Part shown: positions 12,976-63,214 of the stretch, piece by piece
Numbering within the stretch: position 1 is the stretch's first letter
How the letters are laid out: each line of letters begins with the position of its first letter
Virus record (IMG/VR): IMGVR_UViG_3300044638_009648
DNA from: a virus
Lineage: Duplodnaviria > Heunggongvirae > Uroviricota > Caudoviricetes
Reading direction: 5' to 3' (one strand)
DNA: 64,000 nt
Made by a program: the position numbers and the translations under genes
The notes under the pieces: model-generated
Databases searched by the model: none
Told to the model about the DNA's origin: nothing
Seen by the model: only the letters and a program-made list of their open reading frames with translations

Positions 12976-13776
12976 ATGAAAGACAAAATTACATCAATTC
13001 CCTTCAATCAAGAAGAAATCGCAACTTATCTCAAAGATATTCGCAAAATAAAAGTTATGACTCCTGAGCGTGAGCGCGAATTAGCTCAACGAATTTTATC
13101 AGGAAATATCTCTCTCGTAGAAAAACGAGAAATCGAACGTGAATTGCTTATTGGTAATCTTAGATTTGTTATTACTGTTGCAAAACAGTACCAAAACCAA
13201 GGTTTGGAATTGGCCGATTTAATTGCAGAAGGTAATTTAGGTTTACTTAAAGCTGTTGAAAAGTTTGATTGGTCGCAACAATTGCGATTTATTTCTTATG
13301 CGGTATGGTGGATTCGTCAAGCTATATTGCAATCGTTGAACGAAAATTCTAGAACAATTCGACTTCCGGTCAATGTTGTTCAAGAATTGCAAAAAGCAAA
13401 AAAACTCGTTGAAAATAACGGTCAAGACCTGCCCGATAAATTTGCGACTTTACCATATACAATAAATTATGATTCTCCATTAAATGAAGAAGGAGATACT
13501 TTGTTGGATGTATTAAAAAACCCAGATGCGGCAATGCCTGACTCTATTTTTGATACTAAAGAAATGTTGAAAGATAAGCTTTTAAACGTAATGAATATTT
13601 TAGATAATCGTGAACGAGTAATTATTGAGGATTACTTTGGTATTTCAGGTCAAACAAGAACTTTGGAGGACATCGGAAACGATTTTCAACTAACGAAAGA
13701 AAGGGTCCGTCAAATTAAAGAAAAAGCTTTACGAAAACTTCGTAATGAATCTGGACAATTGTTTGAATACCTTTAA
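12976..13776 (+). CDS. Sigma-70 family RNA polymerase sigma factor (regions 2-4)
   Basis: Region 2: DLIAEGNLGLLKAVEKFD and FISYAVWWIRQAI. Region 4: LEDIGNDFQLTKERVRQIKEKALRKLR. Confidence 0.85.
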   Translation: MKDKITSIPFNQEEIATYLKDIRKIKVMTPERERELAQRILSGNISLVEKREIERELLIGNLRFVITVAKQYQNQGLELADLIAEGNLGLLKAVEKFDWSQQLRFISYAVWWIRQAILQSLNENSRTIRLPVNVVQELQKAKKLVENNGQDLPDKFATLPYTINYDSPLNEEGDTLLDVLKNPDAAMPDSIFDTKEMLKDKLLNVMNILDNRERVIIEDYFGISGQTRTLEDIGNDFQLTKERVRQIKEKALRKLRNESGQLFEYL

Positions 13777-21464: not shown

Positions 21465-22388
21465 ATGAAAAATTATTTTGAAATATTAGGCGTCTCAGAA
21501 GATGCTAACGATGATGAGATTAAGAAACAATATAGATTATTATCAAAAAAATACCACCCTGACATAAATCCTGGCGGGGCAGATAAATTCAAAGAAATTG
21601 CCGAAGCTTACGATGTTTTATCTGACCCAGATAAAAAAATAAGATACCAACAACAAAAAAACAACCCTTTCAACGGTGGACCATTTGAAGAATTCTTCAA
21701 AAATGTTTACTCCAGTGGGCCTGAATTTCACCACAAAAGAAAAGTTGCTGATAAAATCATAAAACTACCAGTAAGTGTTTCAGAATCTTATAGAGGGATT
21801 TCTAAACAAATTAATTATCAAAGAAACATCGCCTGTACGGATTGCAATGGAAATGGCGGTGAAAACATACCATGTAGTCAATGTCAAGGTTCAGGATTCT
21901 TTTTTCAAATTTTGGGCTCAGGATTTTTCCAACAAAAGCTAAGAGTGGCGTGTCCATCTTGCCAGGGAAAGGGAAAAATCATAGTGTCTTATTGTGGCAC
22001 GTGTTCCGGAGTTGGTACAAAGTCAAATTTTGAAACTATAAATGTTAATCTACCCAAAGGTATTGATGACGGGCAATTTATGAAACTTGAAGGTAAAGGA
22101 GATTTTATCCAGGGAATGTACGGTGACCTAGTTTTACAAACCACAATGCAACAAGATGGTGAGTTCCAAAAAATGGGCGTTGATTTGATTTATAATTTAA
22201 TTTTAGACTTAGAAACTATTAAGGGTGAAATATTTCAAATCCCTCATCCTGATGGTGAATTGAAAATTGGTGCGCCGCAAATTATTGACACAAATAAACC
22301 GCTAAGATTAAAAAATAAAGGTTTCCCCGGGGGGGACATGTATGTCAAGATTAATGTCGTATATGATAAATCAAAACAGGTTGACTAA
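21465..22388 (+). CDS. dnaJ: DnaJ/Hsp40 co-chaperone (J domain, CR zinc finger and C-terminal domain)
   Basis: J domain with YHPDINP (HPD motif), followed by four CxxCxGxG zinc-finger repeats (CTDCNGNG, CSQCQGSG, CPSCQGKG, CGTCSGVG). Confidence 0.85.
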   Translation: MKNYFEILGVSEDANDDEIKKQYRLLSKKYHPDINPGGADKFKEIAEAYDVLSDPDKKIRYQQQKNNPFNGGPFEEFFKNVYSSGPEFHHKRKVADKIIKLPVSVSESYRGISKQINYQRNIACTDCNGNGGENIPCSQCQGSGFFFQILGSGFFQQKLRVACPSCQGKGKIIVSYCGTCSGVGTKSNFETINVNLPKGIDDGQFMKLEGKGDFIQGMYGDLVLQTTMQQDGEFQKMGVDLIYNLILDLETIKGEIFQIPHPDGELKIGAPQIIDTNKPLRLKNKGFPGGDMYVKINVVYDKSKQVD

Positions 22389-29889: not shown

Positions 29890-32800
29890 ATGCCTAGCAA
29901 TATAACTATATTTCCTAGTAACTTAGTTCCTCAACCTTTAAGGAGACCGAATATTGTTTTTGAATATTCAGTGTCAACGATGAAGCTTGAGGTTCTTTTT
30001 GCTGCGGCTATTCAAATTGCAAATCAACTCCTTATAGCACCACAATCTGGTTGTACTGAATTTTCAATTGCTGCGACGAGTAGTCCAAGTGCTACTGTTC
30101 AATATACTGATTGTAATACTGGAGAATCAAAATCTATTGTTGTTCCTAATGGTTCTACATGGTACCGATGCGCAAGAACTGGAACTGTTTCAACAACATC
30201 TGGAACTTCAACAAATACCAGCTTAGGTGCGTGTTACCCGAAAGTCCAAATTTATAGTGGTCTTACCGTTAACAATTATCTTAGCATTGGCGGAGTTCAA
30301 GTTTTAAACGGTACGGGAAATTGGTTAGGTCCGGGAACAAATATTACTGGAGCTCAAGGGGCTCAAGGAGCAACTGGCGCACAGGGAGCAACCGGCGCTC
30401 AAGGAGCACAAGGAGCTACAGGCTCACAAGGGGCAGTTGGGGTCCAGGGTGCTCAGGGGGGCACCGGAGCACAAGGCCCCAGGGGTAATCAAGGTGCTCA
30501 AGGCGCTATCGGTTCACAAGGAGCTACGGGAGCCCAAGGACTTCTAGGGACTACAGGCGCTCAAGGGGCAACTGGCTCCCAAGGAGCTACTGGAGCCCAA
30601 GGTCCTCGAGGGCCTCAGGGAGCAATTGGTGCACAAGGTGCTGTTGGTGCGCAAGGGACCCAAGGACCTAGAGGTAACCAAGGAGCTCAGGGTGCTGTGG
30701 GGTCTCAAGGTGCTACTGGAATCCAAGGTAGTAGAGGACCTCAGGGTGATTCAGGAGCCCAAGGTGCGCAAGGTGGTACAGGAGTACAAGGTCCTAGAGG
30801 TAACCAAGGTGTGCAAGGTGCTACTGGAGATTTGGGTGGACAAGGAGCCCAAGGTGCTGCTGGACCAAAAGGGGATGGTGGTGCGTCTGGAGCGCAAGGA
30901 GCTACAGGAGGTCAGGGTCCACGAGGTCCTCAAGGTGCTGTTGGTTCACAAGGTGCACTCGGAGCTCAGGGAGCTCAAGGAACTGTCGGCCCACAAGGAG
31001 CCCAAGGTGCCACGGGTGCACAAGGAGCCACCGGAGCCCAAGGTTCCAGAGGACCCCAGGGTGCCCAAGGAGCCCAAGGAGTGCAAGGTGCGGTCGGTGC
31101 CCAAGGCGATAAAGGGAATACAGGTGCTCAAGGTGCTCAAGGTGCCACTGGTGCTATTGGCTCACAAGGAGCTAGAGGACCGCAAGGAGCCCAAGGAGCA
31201 ATAGGTTCTCAAGGAGCCACAGGAGCACAGGGACCTAGGGGTCCTCAGGGTTCTATTGGCGCACAAGGAGCAACTGGACCAACTGGTGCCCAAGGCACTG
31301 TTGGACCTAAAGGAGAAGGTGGTGCCTCAGGAGCTCAGGGAGCCACAGGAGCACAAGGCTCAAGAGGAAATCAAGGGGTTCAAGGAGCCACAGGTTCTCA
31401 AGGAGCTACTGGAGCTCAAGGACAATTAGGTCCCCAGGGTGTACAAGGAGCAATCGGTTCCCAAGGTGCGACAGGAGCACAAGGTGCAAGAGGACCTCAG
31501 GGAGCTCAAGGCGCAACTGGAGCTCAGGGAGCAACTGGAGCGCAAGGGGCCAGTGGACCCCAGGGAGCTATAGGTATACAAGGAGCCACAGGAGCCCAAG
31601 GAGCTCAGGGAGCTCGAGGTCCACAGGGTTCTGTTGGTGCTCAAGGAGCACAGGGTGCTTTAGGTGCTCAAGGTGCTGCCGGTCCAAAGGGAGACGGCGG
31701 CGCAACTGGTTCTCAAGGAGCTACTGGAGCTCAAGGACAATTAGGTCCCCAGGGTGCACAGGGAGCAATCGGTTCGCAAGGTGCCACAGGAGCACAGGGT
31801 GCAAGAGGACCACAAGGAGCTCAAGGAGCTACGGGAGCTCAAGGAGCCACAGGAGCCCAAGGTTCAAGAGGACCCCAAGGAGCTATCGGTGCTCAAGGAG
31901 CACAAGGAGCCACAGGTGCTCAAGGTTCAAGAGGTCCGCAAGGTCCTGTCGGAGCCCAAGGAGCACAAGGAGCCACAGGTGCTCAAGGTTCAAGAGGTCC
32001 GCAAGGTGCCATTGGGTCTCAGGGTGCTACCGGCGGACAAGGGGCTCAAGGTGCTGCTGGTCCCAAAGGCGATGGTGGTGCATCAGGCGCAACTGGAGGC
32101 CAAGGAGCACAAGGTGCTAAAGGTCCTCAGGGTTCTAATGGCGCTCAAGGAGCCCAAGGAGCAACTGGTGCCCAAGGACCAAGAGGTCCCCAAGGAGCTA
32201 TCGGAGCCCAAGGTGGTACTGGTAACACAGGAGCTCAAGGAGCCAAGGGTCCGCAGGGTCCATTAGGCTCTCAAGGAGCAACGGGTAATACAGGAGCTCA
32301 AGGCGCTAGAGGACCTCAAGGAGCAACTGGTTTTGAGGGAGCAACTGGCTCAACAGGTGCTCAAGGTCCACGCGGACCTCAAGGTGCTGGCGGGTTTCAA
32401 GGTGCTACCGGAAATCAAGGAGCACAAGGGGCTGTTGGTCCAAAAGGCTCGGCCGGCGCTCCTGGTAATCCAGGTGCAACTGGCGCACAAGGAGCTAGAG
32501 GACCACAAAGTGATGCTGCCCCCGTTGCTGGAGCTCAAGGAGGTACTGGTGCGCAAGGCAGCAGAGGCCCCCAGGGCGCTCAGGGGGCCCAGAGTGGTAC
32601 AGGATTCCAAGGGGCACAAGGCGCTAGAGGTCCACAAGGAGCACAAGGAGCACAAGGTGCCACAGGGAACACAGGGGCTCAAGGGGCTCGAGGCCCTCAA
32701 GGAGGTAAAGGTGGCACAGGTCCAGTAGGAGCAATAGGTGCTCAAGGTTCCCGTGGTCCTCAAGGCCTAGTGGGTGCTCAGGGTGCTACTGGATTTTCAG

Positions 32801-33771
32801 GTGCACAAGGGGCAAGAGGTCCCCAAGGAGCAACAAATGGAGCTTTACAAGGTGCTACAGGAGCTCAAGGTTCCAGGGGACCACAGGGAGCTACAGGTTT
32901 TCAAGGTTTTCCTGGTTTTACTGGATTTCCGGGTGCCAATGGACCCCAGGGTGCTCAGGGAGCCCAGGGTGCTAGAGGTCCACAAGGAGCTCAAGGGGCA
33001 CGAGGTCCTCAAGGTGCACAGGGTGGCACGGGTCCTGTGGGTAACACTGGAGCAAGGGGTGCCCAAGGGGCAACGGGTAGTCAAGGATTCCAAGGAGCAC
33101 AAGGTTCTTTAATTCTTGGACCTCAAGGGGCACAGGGTGCCACAGGAGCTACCGGTGCTCAGGGACCCACTGGTCCAACCGCACCAAGTTGTGTTGCACA
33201 TTTTGTGTCTAACTGTTATAGTAGTGACGTGGATGCTTGTGGTGCGAAATCTCCAGGCGATTATCAAACGATTTATTCCCCTTGTGCTGTTTTGGCAAAC
33301 GGTTGCCGCCTTTGGGCAGACTCTTTATGTACAACTGGTTGCCCTTGTGACCCTGGGTTTGAATACATATCTGACGGTGTTAATGTTTGGTTAGTAGACG
33401 CTAACTGCGAATTAGCTAATGAGACACCCTGTACCTCTGTTTCTGATGGTAGATTAAAAACAAACGTGTTAACCATTGATAATTCTTTGGAATTATTGCT
33501 GAAGTTGGAACCTGTAGAATTTGATTGGAAAGAAATAACTCCGGAATACAAATATTTTGTGGAGAAAGGTATTACCCACTCTGTTGGGTTTATTGCTCAG
33601 CAAGTAAAAACTGTTGTTCCCGAAATTGTTCAAATGCGACCAAACGGATATTATACGGTTGATTACCCCCGAGTTAACGCTTTACTTGTTGAAGGTATAA
33701 AGGAACAACAAGTATTTATTGAGGACTTGGAAAAAGACATAACTGAACTTGAAAAATTATTTGAATTGTAA
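29890..33771 (+). CDS. Collagen-like fibre protein 1 (1293 aa) with Cys-rich module and C-terminal peptidase S74 intramolecular-chaperone domain
   Basis: About 940 residues of uninterrupted Gly-X-Y ([16 protein letters not shown]...). The C-terminus SDGRLKTNV ... [16 protein letters not shown] matches the endosialidase / tail-fibre auto-cleaving chaperone domain (S-D-x-R-L-K-x-N). Confidence 0.85.
30349..33180 (+). repeat. Gly-X-Y (GGN-GCN-CAR) triplet-repeat tract of fibre 1
   Basis: Direct 9-nt periodicity visible in the sequence. Confidence 0.9.
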
Positions 33772-36700
33772 TGGCTATTGATGTCATCATTTATCCCACT
33801 GGTGTGACTGGTAATGCAATCCCTCAAATTATTTTTGAGGATGCTGCTGGTGCCAAAATGGGTTTGATATATGAGGGGCCAAATTTAAGGTTTTCAGCTT
33901 CAACATCCATATCCTTGGTAACGGTAAGCCCAACGTCTGTTATTACTTCGGGTACTAGCGTTAGTAACGCCACAACTGGTATTTGGGCTGGGGAAACTTT
34001 GATGATTAACACCATTGGTGAATGGGTGGGACCACCCTTTAATATTCAAGGTTCTCAAGGAGCTCAAGGAGCAATAGGTTCCCAAGGAGCCCAAGGTGCT
34101 CAAGGAGCTCAAGGTGCTAAAGGAGCGCAAGGTGCCATAGGACCTCAAGGCGCCCAGGGTGCTCAAGGTGCTCAAGGCGCCCAAGGCGGTGTACAAGGTG
34201 CGCAAGGAGGCACTGGCGCTCAAGGAGCACAAGGTGCTCAAGGAGCACAAGGTGCTGTACAAGGAGCCCAAGGAGCTACCGGTGGCCAGGGAGCTCAGGG
34301 AGCACAGGGAGCACAGGGAGGTGTCCAAGGAGTCCAGGGTGCAACCGGAGCTCAAGGTGCCCAAGGAGCCGCTGGAACCCAAGGAGGAGTTCAAGGGGTG
34401 CAAGGTGCCACAGGAGGTCAAGGAGCTCAAGGAGCTACCGGTGCTCAAGGAGCAACTCAAGGTGCTATCGGTCCCCAAGGGGCACAAGGAGCACAAGGTG
34501 CCGCGGGAACTCAAGGTGGTGTCACTGGAGCTCAAGGAGCAAAAGGATTTCAAGGAGCACAAGGAGCACAAGGTGCCCAAGGTGGCGTCACTGGAGCCCA
34601 AGGAGCTCAAGGAGCGCAGGGGGCACAAGGTTCCCAGGGAGCTCAGGGTGCACCTCAAGGTGCTACAGGAGGTCAAGGTGCCCAAGGTGCACAAGGTGGA
34701 ATTGGTGCTCAGGGTGGAACTACTGGTGCCCAAGGTGCTCAAGGTGCTACAGGAGCTCAAGGTGCTACAGGAGCTCAAGGAGCAACTCAAGGTGTCCAGG
34801 GTGCCACAGGTTTTACAGGAGGTCAAGGTGTCCAAGGCGCACAGGGTGGTGTTCAAGGAGCCCAAGGTGCCATAGGAACACAAGGTGCTACTGGAGGTCA
34901 AGGAGCGCAAGGGTCTCCCACAGGAGGTCAGGGAGCTACAGGCTCACAGGGTGCACAAGGTTCTCAAGGGGCCCAAGGACTAGCAACAGGCTCTCAAGGG
35001 GCACAAGGTGCCCAAGGAGGACAAGGAGCTCAGGGAGCCCAAGGTGGCGTAACTGGAGCTCAAGGAGCTCAAGGAGCTCAAGGCGCTCAAGGTGCTATTG
35101 GTGCCCAGGGTGGTGTTGTCGGAGCCCAAGGTGCTATAGGAGCGCAAGGTGCTACGGGAGCTCAAGGTGCACAAGGTGGTGTTACAGGTGCTCAAGGAGC
35201 TACAGGCGGACAAGGAGCTCAAGGAGCAACCGGTGCTCAAGGATTACCTACAGGAATTCAAGGCACAACAGGCGCTCAGGGAGCTCAAGGTGCTACTGGT
35301 GCCCAAGGTTTACCCACAGGAGCCCAAGGTGCTCAAGGAGCCACTGGAGCTCAAGGTGCTACTGGTGCCCAAGGATTGCCCACGGGAAACCAAGGTGCTC
35401 AAGGTTCCCAAGGAGCACAAGGGGCTCAAGGTGCACAAGGTGGTGTAACAGGCGCTCAAGGAGCCCAAGGTGCCCAAGGTGCCACTGGTGCCCAAGGTGC
35501 ACAGGGTGGTGTCACTGGAGCCCAGGGCGGGACAGGTGGACAAGGAGCACAAGGCGCTCAAGGAGCCACAGGTTCTCCCCAAGGAGCTCAGGGAGTTCAA
35601 GGGGCTACTGGTGCCCAAGGACAAGTTGGTGCGCAAGGTTTACCCACAGGAGATACCGGAGGTCAAGGAATTCAAGGGTCACAAGGTGCCACTGGTGCCC
35701 AAGGCTCCGTACAAGGAGCCACAGGCTCTCAAGGTATTACAGGAGCACAAGGTGCCGTAGGAGCCCAAGGTGGTCCAACTGGAGCTCAAGGAGCCACAGG
35801 AGCACAAGGTGCACAAGGAGCCACAGGAGCTCAAGGAGGTATAACAGGTGCTCAAGGAGCACAAGGAGCCCAAGGAGCTCAAGGCGCAACGGGTGCTCAA
35901 GGAGGTCCAACAGGTTCTCAGGGTGCCCAGGGAGCTCAAGGCGCTCAGGGTGCCACAGGTGCAACTGGAGGTATTACTGGGGCCACAGGGGCACAAGGTG
36001 CTCAAGGACCCCAAGGTGCTCAGGGTGCCACAGGGGGCGTTACTGGAGCTACTGGAGCTACTGGTGCACAAGGACCACAAGGTGCTCAAGGTGCTGCTGG
36101 ATTACCCCAAGGCGCACAAGGACCACAAGGTGCTCAAGGTGCTCAAGGTGCTAAAGGAGCGCAAGGTGCCATAGAAGGTGCCGATGGTCTTCAAGGTTCT
36201 CAAGGACCCCAAGGAGCTCAAGGAGCTCAAGGAGGCGGAACAGGTGCTCAAGGCGCACAGGGACCCCAAGGAGCACAAGGAGCTACTGGTGCTCAAGGAG
36301 GACCTATGGGTGCCACAGGAGCACAAGGAGCACAAGGAGCACAAGGTGCCACAGGAGCGCAAGGTGCTGTCGTAGGTGCTCAAGGAAACACACCGTTTCC
36401 AGGCGCTACAGGAGGAACTGGAGCACAAGGATTGCCAACTGGAGGTCAAGGATTTCAAGGTAGCCAAGGATTTCAAGGAGCTACTGGTGCCCAAGGAGGT
36501 GCACAAGGAGCACAAGGAGCAATAGGAGCCCAAGGGGCTCAAGGAGCCACAGGGGCTCAGGGAGGCGTAACAGGTGCTCAAGGTGCACAAGGCGCACAAG
36601 GACCACAGGGTGCCACAGGTGCTCAAGGAGGCCCAACAGGAGCCCAGGGTTCTTTAGGTCCCCAGGGTGCACAAGGAGCACAAGGAGCGACAGGTGGTGT

Positions 36701-37358
36701 GACAGGTGCACAAGGTCCCCAAGGTGCACAGGGAGCACAAGGCCCCCAAGGGGAAAATAGTGCAACCCCTGGCTCACAAGGAGCTCAAGGTCAAGTAGGT
36801 GAATTACCTGGAGCACAAGGTGCATCCAATGCAACAACAGGAGCCCAGGGGGCTACACCTGGAGCAGGACCACAGGGAGCTCAGGGAGCACAAGGTTCTG
36901 AAGGTATAAAAGGACCCCAAGGTGCGCAAGGACCTAGTACAGGAGGGCCTCCAGGACCCCAAGGTGCCCAAGGAGCCCAAGGTGCACAAGGACCAACTGG
37001 ACCAACTGGACCACCCTCAGATTATAGATTAAAAACTAATGTTATCCCATTGACAAATGTTACAAGTAAAGTTATTGACATGCGAGGGGTCAAATTTGAA
37101 TGGCTAGAAAATATCCCCCAATTGGAACATATACCAGAAGCCCAACATTTTTATCTCAAGGGAAAAAGTATTGGATTTATTGCCCAAGAAATTGAAAAAA
37201 TATTTCCAGAATTAGTTTTGGAAGATAGATATGGGTATAAGAACATTCAGTACGATATTTTAGTTGCCATTGGCGTTGCTGCTGTAAAAGAAAATAATGA
37301 AAGAATTATTCTATTGAAAAATAAAATCAAACCCTTAAAATCATTTATAGGTGGCTGA
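33771..37358 (+). CDS. Collagen-like fibre protein 2 (1195 aa) with C-terminal S74 chaperone domain
   Basis: Gly-X-Y repeats with frequent one-residue register interruptions (GGVTG, GLPTG, GATQG). C-terminus [14 protein letters not shown] ... [16 protein letters not shown]. Confidence 0.85.
34048..37016 (+). repeat. Gly-X-Y triplet-repeat tract of fibre 2
   Basis: Seen directly in the sequence. Confidence 0.9.
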
Positions 37359-40300
37359 GAATATCATTATTTTTCCCGGAAGTGCTATGTTTGAATTTGT
37401 TGACTCTGGGTCAACAACTTCGAACTGGACTTTTATTGATTCAGGAACAGGATTGAGATTTCAGAATAATTCCTATGATTTATTAGACATTGTTGATAAT
37501 AGTATCAGCTTTAGAGTTAGATATGCCAATTTGTATGTAGATTCCATAACAAACAATTTTGGAAAAATTATTGATGGAACTGGATGGTTAGGAAACCAAA
37601 ACGCTGGGCCCCAAGGTGCACAAGGTGCTAAAGGACCAACTGGTGCAACTGGAGCAACTGGTGCGATAGGAAATATAGGTGCTCAAGGTGCTCAGGGGGC
37701 TACTGGTCCAACCGGAATCCAAGGGGCTACAGGAGCTCAAGGTGCTCAAGGATTTCAAGGAGCTCAAGGAGCTCAAGGTGCTAATGGAGCTCAAGGAGCT
37801 ACAGGACCACAAGGCGCTCAAGGGTTTCAAGGCGCTCAAGGGGCACAAGGAGCAATTGGTGCACAAGGTGCTCAAGGATTTCAAGGAGCTCAAGGAGCTC
37901 AAGGTGGTATTGGTTCCCAAGGAGCCCAGGGGGGTCAAGGATTTCAAGGAGCTCAAGGTGCTCAAGGCGCGGTAGGAGCTCAAGGAGCCCAAGGTGGTCA
38001 AGGATTTCAAGGTATAACCGGAAGCCAGGGAGCAGTTGGAGCACAAGGTGCTCAAGGAGGTCAAGGATTTCAAGGTGCCCAAGGAGCACAAGGTGGAACG
38101 GGAGCGCAAGGAGCGCAAGGAGCGCAAGGAGCTCAAGGTGTTTTGGGTATACAAGGGGCAGTCGGAGCCCAGGGCGCACAGGGAGGTCAAGGATTCCAAG
38201 GTGCTCAAGGAGCCCAAGGTGCAACTGGTGCCCAGGGAGCACAAGGAGGTCAAGGATTTCAAGGAAATATAGGTTCTCAAGGTTCAACTGGAGCACAGGG
38301 TGCTCAAGGTGGACAAGGATTTCAAGGAGCTCAAGGTGGTCAAGGATTTCAAGGAGCTCAAGGAGCCCAAGGAGCCCAAGGAGTCCAAGGTTCTGTGGGT
38401 GGACAAGGAGCGCAAGGAGCACAGGGTGCACAAGGAGGTCAAGGATTTCAGGGAGCAACTGGTGCCCAAGGAGCTATTGGTGCCCAGGGCGCACAGGGAG
38501 GTCAAGGATTTCAAGGAGCAACTGGTGCTCAAGGAGCTGTTGGTGCCCAAGGAGCACAGGGAGGTCAAGGAGCACAAGGAGTTTTAGGAACACAAGGTTC
38601 CGTTGGGGCACAAGGTGCCCAAGGTGCTCAGGGATTTCAAGGGGCTCAAGGAGTGCAAGGTGCTACAGGCGCCCAAGGAGCACAGGGAGGTCAGGGATTC
38701 CAAGGGGCACAAGGAGCGCAAGGTGCAGTAGGAGCACAAGGCGCACAGGGCGGTCAAGGATTCCAAGGTAATGTTGGTGCTCAGGGTGCGGTAGGAGCTC
38801 AAGGAGCTCAAGGTGGTCAAGGATTTCAAGGTGCTACTGGAGCCCAAGGTGCGGTAGGAGCTCAAGGTGCCCAAGGTGGTCAAGGATTTCAAGGAGCGCA
38901 AGGAGCAAATAGTGTAACTGGCGCACAAGGCGCACAGGGTGGTCAGGGTGCTCAAGGTATTCCTGGATTCCAAGGAGCCCAAGGCGCCACAGGAGCTCAA
39001 GGAGCTCAAGGATTCCAAGGCGCCCAAGGAGCTCAAGGAGCCGTCGGAGCACAAGGAGCACAAGGTGGACAAGGTTTCCAAGGTGGTACTGGAGCCCAAG
39101 GAGCAACAGGGGCACAAGGAGCCCAAGGTGGTCAAGGATTTCAAGGAGCCCAAGGGGCTCAAGGAGCAACAGGGGCACAAGGAGCCCAAGGTGGTCAAGG
39201 ATTTCAAGGAGCCCAAGGAGCCCAAGGAGCAACTGGAGCTCAAGGCGCTCAAGGAGGTCAAGGATTCCAAGGAGCCCAAGGAGCTACGGGGGCACAAGGT
39301 CCCGTTGGGGCACAAGGTGGTCAGGGAGCTCAAGGTGTGTTAGGTACTCAAGGTACTGTTGGTGCCCAGGGAGCACAAGGTGGTCAAGGATTTCAAGGTG
39401 TTGCTGGAAATACAGGTGAAGTTGGAGCACAGGGTGCTCAAGGCGCTCAAGGATTCCAGGGAGCCCAAGGAGCAGGCGGTGGTACTGGACCACAAGGTGC
39501 TCAAGGCGGTCAAGGATTCCAAGGAGCTCAAGGAGCTACAGGAGCTACAGGAGCGCAAGGGGCACAAGGTGGACAAGGTTTCCAGGGAGGTACTGGCTCA
39601 ACAGGTTCACAAGGTTCACAAGGAGCTCAGGGTGGACAAGGATTCCAAGGTCCTCCAGGTGATTCGGGAGGAACTGGCTCAGTTGGAGCTCAAGGTGGTC
39701 AAGGAGGGCAAGGACTTCCAGGAGTTACAGGACCACAAGGTTCACAAGGAGCTCAGGGTGGGCAAGGTTTTCAGGGAGCACAGGGGCCTATTGGTTCACA
39801 AGGTTCGCAAGGAGCTCAAGGTGGTCAAGGTTTTCAGGGTAATGTAGGTGCAACAGGCGCTCAAGGCGCTCAAGGTGCTCAAGGAGGTCAGGGATTCCAA
39901 GGAGCAACTGGAGCAGTGGGTCCACAAGGTGCGCAAGGTTCCCAGGGTGGACAAGGATTTCAAGGGGCTATAGGTTCCCAAGGGGCGACTGGAGCTCAAG
40001 GAGCCCAGGGAGCTCAAGGATTCCAGGGTCCACTGGGTGCTCAGGGTGCTACCGGGGTTCAAGGGGCTCAAGGTGGGCAAGGATTCCAAGGAGCACAGGG
40101 CACTCTAGGTCCGACAGGAGCTCAAGGAGCCACGGGTGCCCAAGGATTCCAAGGTGCCACCGGAGCCAAGGGTTTAGCGGGGTCAACCGGAGCACCAGGT
40201 TCACCAGGTCCTCAGGGAGCTCAAGGAGCTCAGGGAGCACAAGGATTCCAAGGTGCTCAAGGTGGCCAAGGATTTCAAGGTGCTGCTGGTGCAATTACTA

Positions 40301-40770
40301 TAGGAGCACAAGGCCAACAAGGAGCGCAAGGAGCCAAAGGAAGTGTAGACGGGGCTCAAGGTGCCTCTGGTGGTACAGCAACGGGTTTTCAGGGCGCGCA
40401 AGGAACAACAGGTCCAAGTGGAGCTCCAGGCCCAACGGGTCCCTCAGATTACAGATTGAAAAAAAATGTCGAAAATATTACTTCAGCACTAGACTTGGTT
40501 CAAAAACTTAGGGGTGTAAGATATAATTGGATACCTGGTATAAACAAAGATACTAGTGCTGTTGAAATTGGGTTTATTGCCCAAGAAATTGGTGAATATA
40601 TTCCTGAAGTTTTATTTGGTTCAGAAAATACACAATATGGTGTGAGATATAAGGAAGTTGTTGCTGTTACAATTGAAGCTATCAAAGAGCAAGAATCCAA
40701 AATCAGTGAACTTGAAAAGAGATTACAAGCAGTTTTGGATAAAGCACAACAAAAAGGTCTGATTATTTAA
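37351..40770 (+). CDS. Collagen-like fibre protein 3 (1139 aa) with C-terminal S74 chaperone domain
   Basis: Gly-X-Y repeats organised as a 7-triplet (21 aa / 63 nt) higher-order unit ...[13 protein letters not shown].... C-terminus [13 protein letters not shown] ... [16 protein letters not shown]. Confidence 0.85.
37603..40443 (+). repeat. Gly-X-Y triplet-repeat tract of fibre 3 (63-nt higher-order periodicity)
   Basis: Seen directly in the sequence. Confidence 0.9.
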
Positions 40771-44657: not shown

Positions 44658-45824
44658 ATGAAGATTAAATTAGAATATGTATGGCTTGACGGTTATTCCC
44701 CGGAGCCTAATCTTAGAAGTAAGGTTAAAGTAATAGACACACCTCACCAGGAAGGTAGAATTACCTTGGATGATTGCCCTGAGTGGAGCTTCGATGGTTC
44801 GTCAACGCGACAAGCTGAAGGCAAGTTTTCTGACTGCATTTTGAAACCGGTGAGAGTTTATGAAAATATCCTTAACAAAGGGTATTTGAAATCATACTTT
44901 GTTTTGTGTGAGGTTATGAACCCTGATGGTACGCCTCACATTACCAACACCAGAGCAAATGTGGGTGAAGAAGAAGTAGGTCTTTGGTTCGGTTTTGAGC
45001 AAGAGTATACCATCTACCAAAACGGTAGACCTCTAGGATTTCCCAAGAACGGTTATCCCGAACCCCAGGGCAAATACTACTGCGGTGTGGGCAACGGACA
45101 GGTTCACGGACGAGAGTTTGTTGACAATCACATGGAGATGTGCATCAAAGCTGGAATTGAAATCACCGGAACCAACGCAGAAGTGTTGCTAGGTCAGTGG
45201 GAGTTCCAGGTTTTCAGCAAAGGAAAACTCAAAGCTGGTGATGACCTTTGGATGGCTCGTTATATTCTCCTGCAGATGAGCGAAGAGTACGGATTCAAAA
45301 TCGAATTCCACCCCAAACCAGTACAAGGTGATTGGAATGGTTCTGGACTTCACTGCAACTTCTCTAATGATAGAATGCGTGAAGAGGGGGGTGAAGAATA
45401 CTTCAATAACATCTTCCGTTCTTTTGATGTGCGTCACCAAGAACACATCCAAAACTATGGTTCGGAAAACAACCTTCGTTTAACTGGTAAACATGAAACG
45501 CAATCCATTGACACATTCAGTTGGGGTGTTTCGGACCGTGGTGCTTCAATCCGTGTTCCACTAGCTACTTCTAAGGAATGGAAAGGATATGTTGAAGACC
45601 GTCGTCCAGCATCGAATGGTGACCCTTATAAGATTGTTCGTGTAATTGCTGAGGCTTTGGACTTTGCTCTGCAGTTGGACAAAATAAATCACACAATAAA
45701 CAGCAAGATTGATGTTGAAAAAGCTAAGGAAATGCTTGCTTTTCTTGGTATTAACTACAATTTAGATAACCGTCATGATTACGACGAAGAAGAGCGTACC
45801 ATTGATAATATTGGAAAGGAATAA
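44658..45824 (+). CDS. glnII: Glutamine synthetase type II (eukaryote-like GSII)
   Basis: Near-colinear match to GSII over the whole length: FDGSSTRQAEGKFSD ... LCEV ... FEQEYT ... GFPKNGYPEPQGKYYCGVG ... GTNAEV ... QWEFQ ... RLTGKHETQSIDTFSWGVSDRGASIRVP ... KGYVEDRRPASNGDPY. Confidence 0.9.
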   Translation: MKIKLEYVWLDGYSPEPNLRSKVKVIDTPHQEGRITLDDCPEWSFDGSSTRQAEGKFSDCILKPVRVYENILNKGYLKSYFVLCEVMNPDGTPHITNTRANVGEEEVGLWFGFEQEYTIYQNGRPLGFPKNGYPEPQGKYYCGVGNGQVHGREFVDNHMEMCIKAGIEITGTNAEVLLGQWEFQVFSKGKLKAGDDLWMARYILLQMSEEYGFKIEFHPKPVQGDWNGSGLHCNFSNDRMREEGGEEYFNNIFRSFDVRHQEHIQNYGSENNLRLTGKHETQSIDTFSWGVSDRGASIRVPLATSKEWKGYVEDRRPASNGDPYKIVRVIAEALDFALQLDKINHTINSKIDVEKAKEMLAFLGINYNLDNRHDYDEEERTIDNIGKE

Positions 45825-48452: not shown

Positions 48453-48467
48453 TATCTTTGTAAGATG
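48453..48467 (+). promoter_or_regulatory. TATCTTTG-N4-ATG promoter/start arrangement
   Basis: Motif at 48453-48460, ATG at 48465 (RNA ligase). Confidence 0.5.
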
Positions 48468-49538
48468 AATATTGAAACACTCAATCGGTATCACGAAGAT
48501 GGATTGCTGTATAAACAAACCCATCCCACACTCCCTTTGACTATATGGAACTATAATGAAAAAGTCCAGTACGAAGGGTTGTGGGATGAGGTGACTCTGC
48601 AATGTCGAGGTTTAATTACTGAAGATACTACCGGTACGATTTTGGTTCGCCCTTTCAATAAGTTCTTTAATTACGAGGAGGTTGTTGGAAAGGGTATGAT
48701 ACCTACAAAAGGTGACTATGTGTACATCCAAGAAAAGATGGATGGGTCCTTGGGTATTCTTTTCAACTACAAAGATGAATGGATTATGGCAACTCGTGGT
48801 TCATTTACCTCTGAACAAGCCATAAAAGGTCTTGAGATTGTTAAATCTAAGTATTTCTTGGTTTCATGGGCTAAGGAATATGCTTACTTGGTAGAAATCA
48901 TCTACCCTGAAAACCGTATCGTTGTTGACTACGGTGAGGAAAAGGTAACTTTTTTATCTGTGGTTTTGAATGAGAGTTGGAAATGGAAACCAACGGACGA
49001 CACTGAACTACACTGGACTACCGCAAAGATGATTCTACATGCTAACGGTGTTAAAGATAATTTGGTAAAAACCGAACAACACTTCAACTTCTCTGATGAG
49101 TTATACAAGTCGTTGAAAGAAAAGAACGAAACCAACAAAGAAGGTTTTGTTCTTAGATTCCAACCTGGTAACTTCAGGATGAAAATTAAGTTTGAAGAAT
49201 ATGTTCGTCTCCATAAAGTTATGACCAACCTGTCGACAACTGCGGTTTGGGAGGTATTATCCAACGGTGGTAATATTGATGACTTGTTGAAGGATGTGCC
49301 TGATGAGTTTTATTCCAAAATCAATGACTATGAGAAATCTTTGATTATTCAGTTTAACAACTTGGAAGAGGAATACCAAAACCACTTTGATTCTATCAGA
49401 AGATTGGGTAATAGAAAGTTATTTGCTCAGTGTGCGGTCATGTTTCAACACCCATCAATATTGTTTGGTATGTTGGATGGTAAAAACATTTCTTCTATAA
49501 TTTGGAAGATTATCAAGCCGGAATTTCGTAAGTTGTAA
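48465..49538 (+). CDS. ATP-dependent RNA ligase, Rnl1-like
   Basis: Nucleotidyltransferase motif I VYIQEKMDGSLGILF (compare T4 Rnl1 KEDGSL); 357 aa. Confidence 0.62.
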   Translation: MNIETLNRYHEDGLLYKQTHPTLPLTIWNYNEKVQYEGLWDEVTLQCRGLITEDTTGTILVRPFNKFFNYEEVVGKGMIPTKGDYVYIQEKMDGSLGILFNYKDEWIMATRGSFTSEQAIKGLEIVKSKYFLVSWAKEYAYLVEIIYPENRIVVDYGEEKVTFLSVVLNESWKWKPTDDTELHWTTAKMILHANGVKDNLVKTEQHFNFSDELYKSLKEKNETNKEGFVLRFQPGNFRMKIKFEEYVRLHKVMTNLSTTAVWEVLSNGGNIDDLLKDVPDEFYSKINDYEKSLIIQFNNLEEEYQNHFDSIRRLGNRKLFAQCAVMFQHPSILFGMLDGKNISSIIWKIIKPEFRKL

Positions 49539-61103: not shown

Positions 61104-61377
61104 TGTCTGTGGCGCACAGAGTATCTTTGCTTATTAAAGATATTGTCTTGCTGATGGTTTGTGTAATAATGTTGGATATTGCGCCTTGATTTACCTCAGG
61201 GTTTTTTGTTACGACATTAACACCATAAACCCAGTCGCACATAGCGGTCTTAATTGGCGCACTAAAAATAAATGTAAGAGTAATTGAATCTACTTCATTC
61301 AACGAAGAATTATTTTTCAAAAGATTTGACAAAATCTTTTCTACAGATTTTTTCATTATCAAATTTTTGTCTGCCAC
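61081..61377 (-). CDS. Hypothetical protein (minus strand); possible GTG start
   Basis: ORF only. Confidence 0.25.
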   Translation of the reverse strand: MADKNLIMKKSVEKILSNLLKNNSSLNEVDSITLTFIFSAPIKTAMCDWVYGVNVVTKNPEVNQGAISNIITQTISKTISLISKDTLCATDIKFESAY

Positions 61378-61437: not shown

Positions 61438-61452
61438 TATCTTTGAACTATG
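61438..61452 (+). promoter_or_regulatory. TATCTTTG-N4-ATG promoter/start arrangement
   Basis: Motif at 61438-61445, ATG at 61450 (umuD-like). Confidence 0.5.
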
Positions 61453-61767
61453 AATTTTGTAGAAGCAGCACTTAAAATAAAAGCTCAGACAACTGGATTT
61501 GCCTCACCGGCAGAAAGCTACGTGGACAAACGATTAGACCTCAACGATTTAATCGTTAGGGATGCGTATTCTACTTTTTATTTTAGATATAAGGGACCCA
61601 AAACTCTTGGTGTTGAAACCGATGATGTGTTGGTAATTGACAGGTCAATTCAACCTGAGATTGGAGATTTAGTTGTATTGACGGATAAATTATGTTTTAA
61701 AATCAGACCCTACGAAGGTCAAACCAATCTTTGGGGTAAAGTTTCGTGGGTTTTAAAGAAAAAATAA
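61450..61767 (+). CDS. umuD: UmuD-like protein (peptidase S24 fold) apparently lacking the catalytic Ser and the Cys/Ala-Gly cleavage site
   Basis: GFASPAESYVDKRLDLNDL versus E. coli GFPSPAADYVEQRIDLNQL. ASGDSM is replaced by YKGPKT, and the cleavage-site CG by TG (hand alignment). Confidence 0.65.
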   Translation: MNFVEAALKIKAQTTGFASPAESYVDKRLDLNDLIVRDAYSTFYFRYKGPKTLGVETDDVLVIDRSIQPEIGDLVVLTDKLCFKIRPYEGQTNLWGKVSWVLKKK

Positions 61768-62011
61768 TATGGTTGTTATTGGAATTATTATTATCTTACT
61801 CTTGATTGAGATAAATCATAATGTAAAAAAATCAAATGAAAAAAATTCTAGATAAATTTGACCAAATCAGATTGGGTCACAAACTACATCAGTTGCAAAA
61901 ACGTCACAATCGAGCTGAAATGAATGGTTATGGTGATAAGTTAGAAATTTATACTCGTAGAATTGAGGAAATTCAAGAAAAGCTTCGACACATTAAAAGT
62001 GATAAACACTA

Positions 62012-63214
62012 ATGAATCGGAAAATTGGAATTATTGATTGCGATTCATTTTATGTGAGTTGCGAGAGAGTATTTAATCCAGTATCAATCGGTAGACCAAC
62101 AGTGGTTCTTTCAAATAACGACGGTTGTGTAATCGCTCGTAGTAAAGAAGCCAAAGCACTTGGTATTAAAATGGGTGAACCCTTCTTTCAAAAAAAGGAT
62201 TTTATGGAAGAGCATCGCTTTTGTGTTTATTCTTCAAACTACAATCTATATGGTGATATCTCAGACAGAGTTATGGCTGTCATTAAGGAGTTTGCTAGAG
62301 AGGTTGAGGTATATTCTATTGATGAAGCGTTTGTTGATTTTTCAAATATTCAAGATAAAGACCTTAAACATACTTTAGAGGTTATCCGAGAACAGGTTTG
62401 GCAGAGAGTTGGAATTCCGGTTTCAATAGGAGTTGGTCCTAACAAAACATTAGCTAAATTAACTTCACATATTGCAAAACAACAACCATCCTATCATGGA
62501 ATATGTAGTTATTGGGAGTTTGATAACTTTAGGAACGACCTTTATGAAATACCTTTAGAAGAAATATGGGGAATTGGTAGAAAATGGACTAAAAAATTCA
62601 AAGAGATTGGGGTTGAATCGATTGGTCAATTTGTTATGTTAAGTGATAATCACGTTAGAAAAATAACAAATGTTAATGGTGTCCGAGCTAAAGCCGAAAT
62701 ACTAGGCATGTATTGTCACCCAGTAAGGCCCATACCAAAGTTTAAAAGAAACATTGCATCAACACGTTCTTTTGGGCAAGACGTGGAAAACTTAAATGAA
62801 ATTGAGCAAGCAATGTATTCTTATATTCAGAATGGTGTAAGAAAGCTGGAAGAGAATGGTGCTGAAACTAATCGTGTGACAATATTTGTAAACGGCAACG
62901 TAAACAAAGGAGACAATCATTTTGCTTCCAAACAATTCAACCTTCAAAGCCAAACCAAAAACACGATTGAAATTTGGAGTCAAGTACATCCTTACTTAAA
63001 AGATTTGTTTCGGACTGGAAACAAATATAAAAAGTGTGGAATAATTTTTCACAATTTAGTTCCGGAAAACCAATACCAGACATCTTTATTTTCCCAAGAA
63101 ATAGAGCCAGTAAAGCCACCGTTATTTAATAGTATGAAGTGGGAGATGAAACAAGATTTTAAAACTCAACACTATACAACTTCCTGGGATGAAATTCCTG
63201 AGGTTTTTGTTTAA
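62012..63214 (+). CDS. umuC: Y-family translesion DNA polymerase UmuC
   Basis: [19 protein letters not shown] ... [29 protein letters not shown] is near-identical in pattern to the UmuC N-terminus. Confidence 0.85.

Follow-up and report, generated by a model that had tools for sequence, protein, structure and literature searches.

A predicted protease-dead, UmuD'-like protein paired with a UmuC without RecA-NT in a clade of large freshwater phages

The IMG/VR virus record IMGVR_UViG_3300044638_009648 (Duplodnaviria; Heunggongvirae; Uroviricota; Caudoviricetes) was considered here over a stretch of 64,000 nucleotides, called the window below, which carries a umuDC-like gene pair on its plus strand at positions 61450-63214. 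The upstream gene encodes a miniature UmuD homologue of 105 amino acids (mini-UmuD) and the downstream gene a UmuC of 400 amino acids. Mini-UmuD displays neither the catalytic residues nor the cleavage site of UmuD, and its partner has lost the segment known as RecA-NT. We read the pair, with a probability of roughly 0.6, as a phage translesion polymerase of the DNA polymerase V (Pol V) type from which evolution removed the two activation steps known to depend on RecA. In textbooks Pol V is the standard case of a dangerous polymerase restrained by several RecA-dependent locks: LexA must be cleaved, UmuD must be cleaved, and UmuC must receive a RecA monomer. Mini-UmuD would correspond to a permanently "on", UmuD'-like subunit needing no self-cleavage, and the phage polymerase would probably work without the DNA-damage alarm of the host.

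Mini-UmuD (61450-61767, plus strand) is a true UmuD homologue, related to the catalytic domain of peptidase family S24 by sequence and by fold. It matched the NCBIfam UmuD family NF007621 (E value 7e-17, under the curated cut-off), the NCBIfam HumD family NF051876 (4e-10; 39.8 bits, short of the family cut-off of 120) and PHROG 811 'UmuD-like' (6e-18), while phmmer retrieved the UmuD and UmuD' entries of the PDB at about 1e-8. The score against Pfam PF00717 (Peptidase_S24) was 17.2, below the gathering cut-off of 23.3. When 35 members of the mini-UmuD family were aligned with 20 canonical UmuDs by hhalign, homology was found at a probability of 99.8 % (E 4e-28). In the AlphaFold2 (AF2) model the confidence score (predicted local distance difference test, pLDDT) exceeded 87 for residues 41-105 and fell under 50 for residues 1-29; the closest PDB folds to the modelled core were, according to Foldseek, UmuD' (1AY9/1UMU, template modelling score 0.64-0.66) and then the C-terminal domains of LexA. 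The UmuD homology put forward by the original prediction, which was made from the DNA letters and their translations, was thus borne out by family profiles, PHROG, phmmer, hhalign and fold comparison.

Residue frequencies in the mini-UmuD family were taken from 120 relatives, and the HMMER and hhalign alignments gave the same register. The scissile bond of UmuD, Cys24-Gly25, corresponds to Thr15-Gly16 of mini-UmuD (61492..61497, plus strand); Gly16 was invariant and the residue preceding it was Thr in 113 and Ser in seven of the 120 relatives. The nucleophile loop ASGDSM is replaced by the degenerate YKGPKT (61588..61605, plus strand), of which KGPKT aligned to SGDSM with Lys51 (codon 61600-61602) in the Ser60 column. 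This column contained Asn, Lys, Asp or Glu, a Ser being found in 0/120, and no alternative invariant Ser, Thr or Cys was found in the nucleophile loop of these relatives. Downstream, CFKIR aligned to EFTVK, which places C82 at E93, K84 at T95 and R86 at K97; the Lys97 column displayed Arg in 118 and Lys in two relatives, and K84 was invariant. Both members of the dyad are gone, since K51 stands at Ser60 and R86 at Lys97. The Ser-to-Lys replacement and the Thr-Gly substitution had been recognised correctly beforehand. The lysine of the FKIR strand (61696..61707, plus strand), which had been taken for the retained catalytic residue, was in turn out of register, K84 and R86 being the basic residues of the former active-site pocket. 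A Ser-Lys dyad in register or a cleavable Ala/Cys-Gly bond, either of which had been named in advance as contrary evidence, was looked for in the profile alignments and was not found. As aligned, mini-UmuD is an S24 homologue failing on all three catalytic features (Ser, Lys and scissile bond); it is predicted to have no Ala/Cys-Gly bond and to be incapable of acting as a Ser-Lys autoprotease.

The protein is also short, as noticed earlier, but not through the loss of about 35 C-terminal residues that had been supposed. It lacks an internal hairpin of 23 residues (E. coli 103-125) and retains the last strand, NLWGKVSWVLKKK, which matches DVFGVVIHVVKAM. Its prepeptide is nine residues shorter than that of UmuD (15 versus 24). 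This N-terminal extension, MNFVEAALKIKAQTT (61450..61494, plus strand), is homologous to UmuD residues ~10-24; L8, I10 and T14 were invariant in it and the remaining positions variable, and the UmuD clamp motif TFPLF was not found there. It is followed by the UmuD'-type arm GFASPAESYVDKRLDLNDLIV (61495..61557, plus strand), the most conserved segment of mini-UmuD, which displays the motif GF-x-SPA..Y...LDLN as in UmuD'.

The ratio of non-synonymous to synonymous substitution rates (dN/dS) of mini-UmuD was 0.06-0.09 against orthologues of 77-89 % identity at the phage loci L008, L011 and L012, and that of umuC was ~0.05 in the same genomes. Within arm residues 16-36, which were nearly invariant across the 120 relatives, the proportion of non-synonymous differences (pN) was 0-0.02 versus 0.55-0.78 for synonymous ones (pS). 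The first 15 codons evolved faster than the rest (pN 0.11-0.30). A protein search returned 332 homologous metagenomic clusters, nearly all of 101-111 amino acids. Mini-UmuD is therefore a functional and not a decaying gene, with a dN/dS near that of umuC, an arm with almost no non-synonymous change and clusters of uniform size.

The same 105-amino-acid protein was found, identical, on 42 contigs, the longest of 230 kb, and a scan of IMG/VR uncovered 40 mini-UmuD loci, the contigs measuring 14-321 kb. By contrast, a scan of 185,579 genomes, one per bacterial or archaeal species, yielded a single true mini-UmuD, on a 7.7-kb contig of a metagenome-assembled genome, the two remaining hits being canonical UmuDs. 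This distribution speaks for a viral origin. No close relative of mini-UmuD or of its UmuC was present in 50,697 deposited phage genomes, the top matches there (30-42 % identity for the small protein, 35 % for UmuC) all being canonical umuDC of temperate phages or humD. The design is so far confined to a clade of large freshwater phages. Wherever the sequence runs on, mini-UmuD lies directly upstream of umuC (58-100 % identity), as found at 17 distinct phage loci and at L005, and in most lineages the two genes overlap by one or eight nucleotides. L005, the most divergent member, displays the same design at 49 % identity. Two decayed cassettes were also seen: at L046 (5001-5220) mini-UmuD codons 1-58 are fused to the last ~20 codons of umuC (…GINQ|DYITQKYTTSWNELPLVFI), most of both genes being cleanly deleted, and at L045 mini-UmuD is cut off after residue ~74.

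That mini-UmuD might be a functionless relic of umuD, in the course of decay, can practically be dismissed. The sub-threshold Pfam score (17.2 against 23.3), the loss of the catalytic residues together with an internal deletion, and the truncated or fused remnants in L045 and L046 would all suit a relic. Decay is already contradicted by the dN/dS of 0.06-0.09, as well as by a length constant at 105 amino acids and 31 invariant positions in sequences down to 63 % identity, and by the recurrence of the same design in the 49 %-identical L005.

The loss of the protease features extends beyond this clade. A set of 1.84 billion representative proteins was searched with the profile of the mini-UmuD family and the best 150 were sorted by their Ser60 and Lys97 columns. 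The single-domain set comprised 106 representatives, 64 with neither dyad residue and 42 with both; these proportions are not natural frequencies because the set is biased towards the query profile. Dyad, scissile site and hairpin length clearly co-varied across these aligned UmuD-like sequences. An Ala/Cys-Gly site was displayed by 10/64 dyad-less versus 37/42 dyad-bearing proteins (Fisher 4e-14), Thr-Gly or Ser-Gly being the rule in the former, and the hairpin had a median of 13.5 residues in the dyad-less group versus 30 in the other (Mann-Whitney 1e-8). Arg was the commonest residue at position 97 of the dyad-less group (30/64). Many distant dyad-less relatives started two to four residues before the Gly (MxTTGF...).

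These early starts, which look as if the mature end were located there, are one reason to consider that only self-cleavage was lost and that mini-UmuD is still controlled and activated by cleavage, the 15-residue prepeptide being removed by another host or phage protease at or near Thr15-Gly16. A free N-terminus at Gly25, and indeed the exact N-terminus of UmuD', matters in Pol V (PMC11791011), and the invariance of Gly16, of Thr/Ser15 as a class and of L8, I10 and T14 suggests a recognised segment. On the other hand TTGF was equally conserved in relatives without a prepeptide, so that the Thr residues are likely part of the arm and not a cleavage signal. The prepeptide moreover evolves faster than the remaining protein, and neither the operon nor its conserved neighbours were found to encode a candidate protease. 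Processing by a foreign protease is consequently regarded as unlikely.

Two other arrangements of UmuD-like proteins were observed. Tandem two-domain proteins of 239-285 amino acids (P0128, P0130, P0135, P0156, P0160, P0201, P0205, P0211 and P0228) usually displayed a degenerate dyad in their N-terminal copy and a canonical GDSM in their C-terminal copy, as if they were single-chain UmuD heterodimers. A dyad-less UmuD-like protein of 106 amino acids (P0207, MLTTGF...) was found in a seemingly bacterial or mobile-element locus (L053, 3226-6243; L054, 550-3567), where a divergent HTH_3-Peptidase_S24 repressor is followed by the dead UmuD, a UmuC with intact RecA-NT and an SRAP gene; control may here have been shifted to the cleavable repressor.

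The UmuC partner (62012..63214, plus strand) is a Y-family polymerase, as had been recognised from the start. It matched Pfam IMS (5e-36), IMS_C (6e-15) and DUF4113 (3e-8) and the NCBIfam UmuC subfamily (7e-83). Its catalytic residues D9, D104 and E105 and its steric-gate Y14 correspond to D6, D101, E102 and Y11 of the E. coli protein. The beta-clamp-binding motif QTSLF (63077..63091, plus strand) aligned to E. coli 357-QLNLF-361, a Q-x-x-[LM]-F motif being present in 120/120 close relatives. UmuC binds UmuD' through a tail made of its last ~28 residues (PMC6511836; PMC11791011), and this conserved tail (63137..63211, plus strand) displays W-x-M...YTTSW...VFV, matching DUF4113 positions 29-51. 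The AF2 model contained palm, thumb and little finger, with modest confidence. According to these alignments the phage UmuC is predicted to be catalytically competent and is equipped with clamp motif and UmuD'-binding tail.

What is missing lies between these two elements. E. coli UmuC matched DUF4113 positions 1-51 (residues 371-421) whereas the phage protein matched positions 29-51 only, and the gap from clamp motif to W-x-M tail measured 16 residues in the window and in all 120 nearest UmuC clusters, versus 38 in E. coli. E. coli residues 362-399 (DDNAPRPGSEQLMTVMDTLNAKEGRGTLYFAGQGIQQQ) are replaced by a short proline-containing linker at the RecA-NT position (63092..63136, plus strand), in which the AF2 model placed no helix or strand. 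The linker was also short, and RecA-NT missing, in the UmuC of L005. RecA-NT is proposed to dock UmuC onto RecA, which fits the cross-links of UmuC R367, S370 and Q372 to RecA N113. In a 2026 survey of bacterial Y-family polymerases RecA-NT was lacking from only four small groups, none of which is the UmuC group (PMC12926913). The motif is kept by UmuCs beside canonical UmuDs (L006, L007) and by those beside three other dyad-less UmuD-like proteins (L050, L053/L054, L055/L056). Loss of RecA-NT as a general companion of dyad-less UmuDs was considered and rejected, the UmuCs of these last loci keeping a clear RecA-NT. The double loss, of the UmuD lock and of RecA-NT, is specific to the phage clade. 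The loss in UmuC, absent from the original prediction, is a stronger point than that in UmuD.

A published AlphaFold model of Pol V indicates which parts of mini-UmuD could contact this UmuC. In that model the UmuD' sheet gains a strand from the last UmuC residues, the C-terminal carboxylate of UmuC forms hydrogen bonds with UmuD' S36, T71 and K73, the side chain of K422 pairs with E69, and the arm of the second UmuD' is inserted beside the UmuC active site (PMC11791011). Raised by 24, the UmuD' positions S36, T71, K73 and E69 appear to be S60, T95, K97 and E93 of UmuD, which agree with the E. coli residues there. Since S60, T95 and K97 would hold the carboxylate, what used to be the protease active site acts, in the Pol V model, as the socket that receives the UmuC tail. 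The pocket of mini-UmuD displayed conserved K84 and R86, with Cys82 (His, Phe or Tyr in relatives) at the E93 position, and the C-terminal residue of UmuC has changed from Lys in E. coli to Val (...VFV) in the phage clade. Retention of K84/R86 together with exchange of E93 for Cys and of the terminal Lys for Val is the pattern expected if the pocket serves binding only, and the K84/R86 pocket may thus hold the UmuC C-terminus. The inserted second arm likewise matches the extreme conservation of mini-UmuD residues 16-36.

The following course of events is proposed. Both proteins would be made together soon after infection, from a promoter without recognisable SOS operator. Mini-UmuD, probably as a dimer, would grip the UmuC tail in its K84/R86 pocket and insert one arm into UmuC, and the complex would, together with a sliding clamp (Q-x-x-L-F), bypass lesions such as ultraviolet (UV) photoproducts in phage DNA. 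With neither self-cleavage nor RecA docking, its activity would be independent of the host SOS response. For a phage exposed to UV, lesion bypass by a polymerase of its own can be likened to a built-in Weigle reactivation. Of the roles suggested originally for the catalytically dead, non-cleavable UmuD that the alignments confirmed, constitutive activity with its own UmuC is favoured because of the invariant adjacency, the strong purifying selection on both genes and a conservation that is highest in the arm and the tail pocket, while a role on host Pol V or on the SOS checkpoint found no support.

A different use of the S24 fold would be that mini-UmuD acts as a RecA or SOS decoy, a dead LexA-family domain binding to RecA filaments and damping the cleavage of host LexA or repressors in the infected cell, with only an incidental linkage to umuC. 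UmuD binds the RecA filament (PDB 8gmt was among the matches) and the region round the former cleavage site is highly conserved. However, the linkage to umuC is invariant, often with overlap, conservation falls on the parts through which UmuC is contacted in the Pol V model, and the partner UmuC no longer has a RecA contact of its own, which points away from RecA. Known defence and anti-defence models (PADLOC) gave no matches. A decoy is thus judged very improbable.

Mini-UmuD might also be a brake that, in the manner of uncleaved UmuD2 of E. coli, holds phage or host UmuC in a non-mutagenic or checkpoint state, or that titrates components of the replisome, for instance the clamp or the alpha subunit of Pol III. 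In E. coli mutagenesis is suppressed by a UmuD that cannot be cleaved (S60A; PMC3901139), and part of the prepeptide, homologous to UmuD residues ~10-24, has been kept here. Against this, catalytic residues, clamp motif and tail would not be maintained at a dN/dS of ~0.05 across a deep clade in a UmuC that is permanently inhibited; the TFPLF clamp motif is missing from the 15-residue extension; and translation of the two genes is tightly coupled, as suits a working complex of fixed stoichiometry. A brake therefore appears improbable, though less so than a decoy.

The role of RecA-ATP inside the Pol V mutasome is still debated, and several points weigh against a translesion polymerase freed from both RecA-dependent steps. 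The 15 extra residues which mini-UmuD keeps uncleaved, with their invariant L8, I10 and T14, have no place in the model, and uncleaved UmuD is inactive in E. coli mutagenesis (PMC3901139). The missing motif is the one feature from which RecA independence is deduced, so this property stays presumptive. In the absence of RecA-ATP, E. coli UmuD'2C displays hardly any activity (PMC6511836), so that the missing RecA-NT could point to a different activator and not to the absence of one. The UmuCs of L050, L053 and L055 keep RecA-NT, so that the losses of UmuD dyad and RecA-NT are not generally coupled. The phage genome measures at least 230 kb, of which the window covers 64 kb, and a phage RecA/UvsX homologue may be encoded elsewhere. 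Finally, the UmuC model is of modest quality (pLDDT 68.6). A more far-reaching version can only be offered tentatively: the freshwater phage clade would possess a self-sufficient, two-component and RecA-independent Pol V, active once made, in which the pocket serves only to clamp the UmuC C-terminus and the 15-residue extension or the shortened domain replaces RecA-ATP.

The E. coli system, UmuD/UmuD' with UmuC (Pol V, or UmuD'2C-RecA-ATP), shares with the phage pair a homologous small subunit with the same arm motif and C-terminal strand, the order of umuD before umuC, and a homologous UmuC with catalytic residues, clamp motif and UmuD'-binding tail. It differs in that mini-UmuD has neither Ser60, Lys97 and Cys/Ala-Gly nor the 23-residue hairpin and TFPLF, and has a prepeptide of 15 residues instead of 24; in that the phage UmuC is devoid of RecA-NT; and in that the pair is phage-borne and displays no recognisable SOS operator.

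The closest precedent of mini-UmuD, compared here through P1 annotation and alignment, is HumD of phage P1 (NF051876), a phage UmuD homologue with the same arm motif that needs no RecA-mediated cleavage and is annotated as complementing UmuD'. In contrast to mini-UmuD with its 15 residues before the Gly, HumD starts at this Gly (MGFPSPA...) without prepeptide. It keeps a full-length C-terminal half and Lys97, its Ser60 being alignable (ADSH) with a shifted gap, and according to the P1 annotation its gene follows a LexA box without a umuC beside it, so that HumD relies on the UmuC of the host. An engineered non-cleavable UmuD variant that keeps its N-terminal residues is reported to behave like UmuD' (Beuning et al. 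2006, as cited in PMC3901139), which would mean that cleavage as such is not required. That variant is a point mutant with a full-size domain, whereas mini-UmuD is natural, shortened and has its dyad replaced.

Subunits of the B. subtilis YqjX/YolD type are likewise non-protease partners encoded beside their polymerases (YqjW/UvrX), with an arm modelled into the Y-family polymerase; their sequence family, however, is unrelated, they are predicted monomers, and the polymerases they serve keep RecA-NT (PMC12926913). LexA, lambda CI, MucA and RumA (S24) display the same fold, the C-terminal domains of LexA being the next-best structural match after UmuD', but all of them are autoproteases that RecA stimulates, with a Ser-Lys dyad and an Ala/Cys-Gly site, whereas mini-UmuD lacks Ser, Lys and site. 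The pairing of a miniaturised, presumably protease-dead UmuD' with a UmuC without RecA-NT is a new variant.

Upstream of mini-UmuD no conserved palindromic operator was found, only A/T-rich palindromes and low-complexity repeats, the LexA box of the presumed Bacteroidota host not being known. A TAnnTTTG box, TATCTTTG (61438..61445, plus strand), stands four nucleotides 5' of the mini-UmuD ATG, and a similar box was found at this constant distance from the start codon in five lineages (the window, L012, L016, L024 and L035). It resembles what we take to be the -7 promoter element of Bacteroidetes and is a candidate for such an element. If it is one, the spacing of four nucleotides implies a leaderless or near-leaderless transcript.

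The stretch 61450-63214 contains four plus-strand open reading frames (ORFs), of 105, 28, 58 and 400 amino acids. The original prediction had described the outer two, umuD and umuC, adequately and had overlooked the two between them. The first of these, a hydrophobic micro-ORF of 28 amino acids, MVVIGIIIILLLIEINHNVKKSNEKNSR (61769..61855, plus strand), starts one nucleotide past the mini-UmuD stop. Similar hydrophobic single-helix peptides were found at the same place in L008, L011 and L012; compared with L008, about seven synonymous and six conservative codon changes were counted by eye. L025 displayed a different hydrophobic ORF of 41 amino acids at this position, and lineages in which mini-UmuD and umuC overlap had none. 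The micro-ORF is possibly a small membrane protein made along with the polymerase.

The second, a 58-amino-acid ORF (61836..62012, plus strand), is an unrelated small phage gene whose stop shares one base with the umuC start. Its family comprised 84 clusters of 54-59 amino acids. Relatives devoid of umuDC carried it at the same Glf-proximal locus (L059-L061), L062 carried it beside thyX, and it was present at no other mini-UmuD/umuC locus. A third polymerase subunit was considered and rejected, the ORF being an independent family with members at those umuDC-less loci and near thyX. A faint match to the NCBIfam Leptospira 'UV-C upregulated' family (E 0.054) was probably due to chance. The sister phages L059-L061 without umuDC show the umuDC pair to be an accessory cassette. 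Its internal junction is a hotspot for small cargo genes, and other inserts were a 189-amino-acid ORF (L017, 5320-6266) and a 126-amino-acid ORF (L023, 5294-5674).

The window as a whole is AT-rich and encodes SbcC/SbcD-like nucleases, a primase, a sigma-70 factor, DnaJ, a thioredoxin, an RNA ligase and collagen-repeat fibre proteins. A sigma-70-family factor, a full DnaJ, a glutamine-synthetase-like protein and a T4 Rnl1-type RNA ligase were located at 12976-13776, 21465-22388, 44658-45824 and 48465-49538, respectively. Three consecutive collagen-repeat genes (1293, 1195 and 1139 amino acids; 29890-40770, plus strand) end in a Peptidase_S74 intramolecular-chaperone domain and are probably tail fibres. 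The GC-rich block at 28-40 kb was considered as foreign DNA, and this was rejected as the block consists of these three fibre genes, whose Gly-X-Y codons account for a GC content of ~0.55 versus ~0.35 in the genome. A perfect GC-containing hairpin, TCTGTGGCGCACAGA (61106-61120), lies just past the glf stop, where this gene converges with a minus-strand ORF of 98 amino acids, and scored terminator-like on both strands. In sister contigs a neighbouring gene encodes a Por_Secre_tail domain, and the label Flavobacteriaceae is attached to some relatives, for which reasons the host is taken to be a member of Bacteroidota.

Should the enzyme need RecA after all, the finding would reduce to a HumD-like curiosity. 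If the self-sufficient, RecA-independent version holds, the pair would be a natural minimal Pol V, with Weigle reactivation independent of the host. In either case a natural and strongly conserved clade has been encountered that has lost the UmuD lock as well as the contact of UmuC with RecA and has preserved the remaining architecture of Pol V. It offers a ready-made minimal system in which to ask whether UmuC and UmuD' can work without RecA and whether the former protease pocket holds the UmuC tail, and it suggests how sunlight-exposed phages may copy damaged genomes without waiting for the SOS response of their host.

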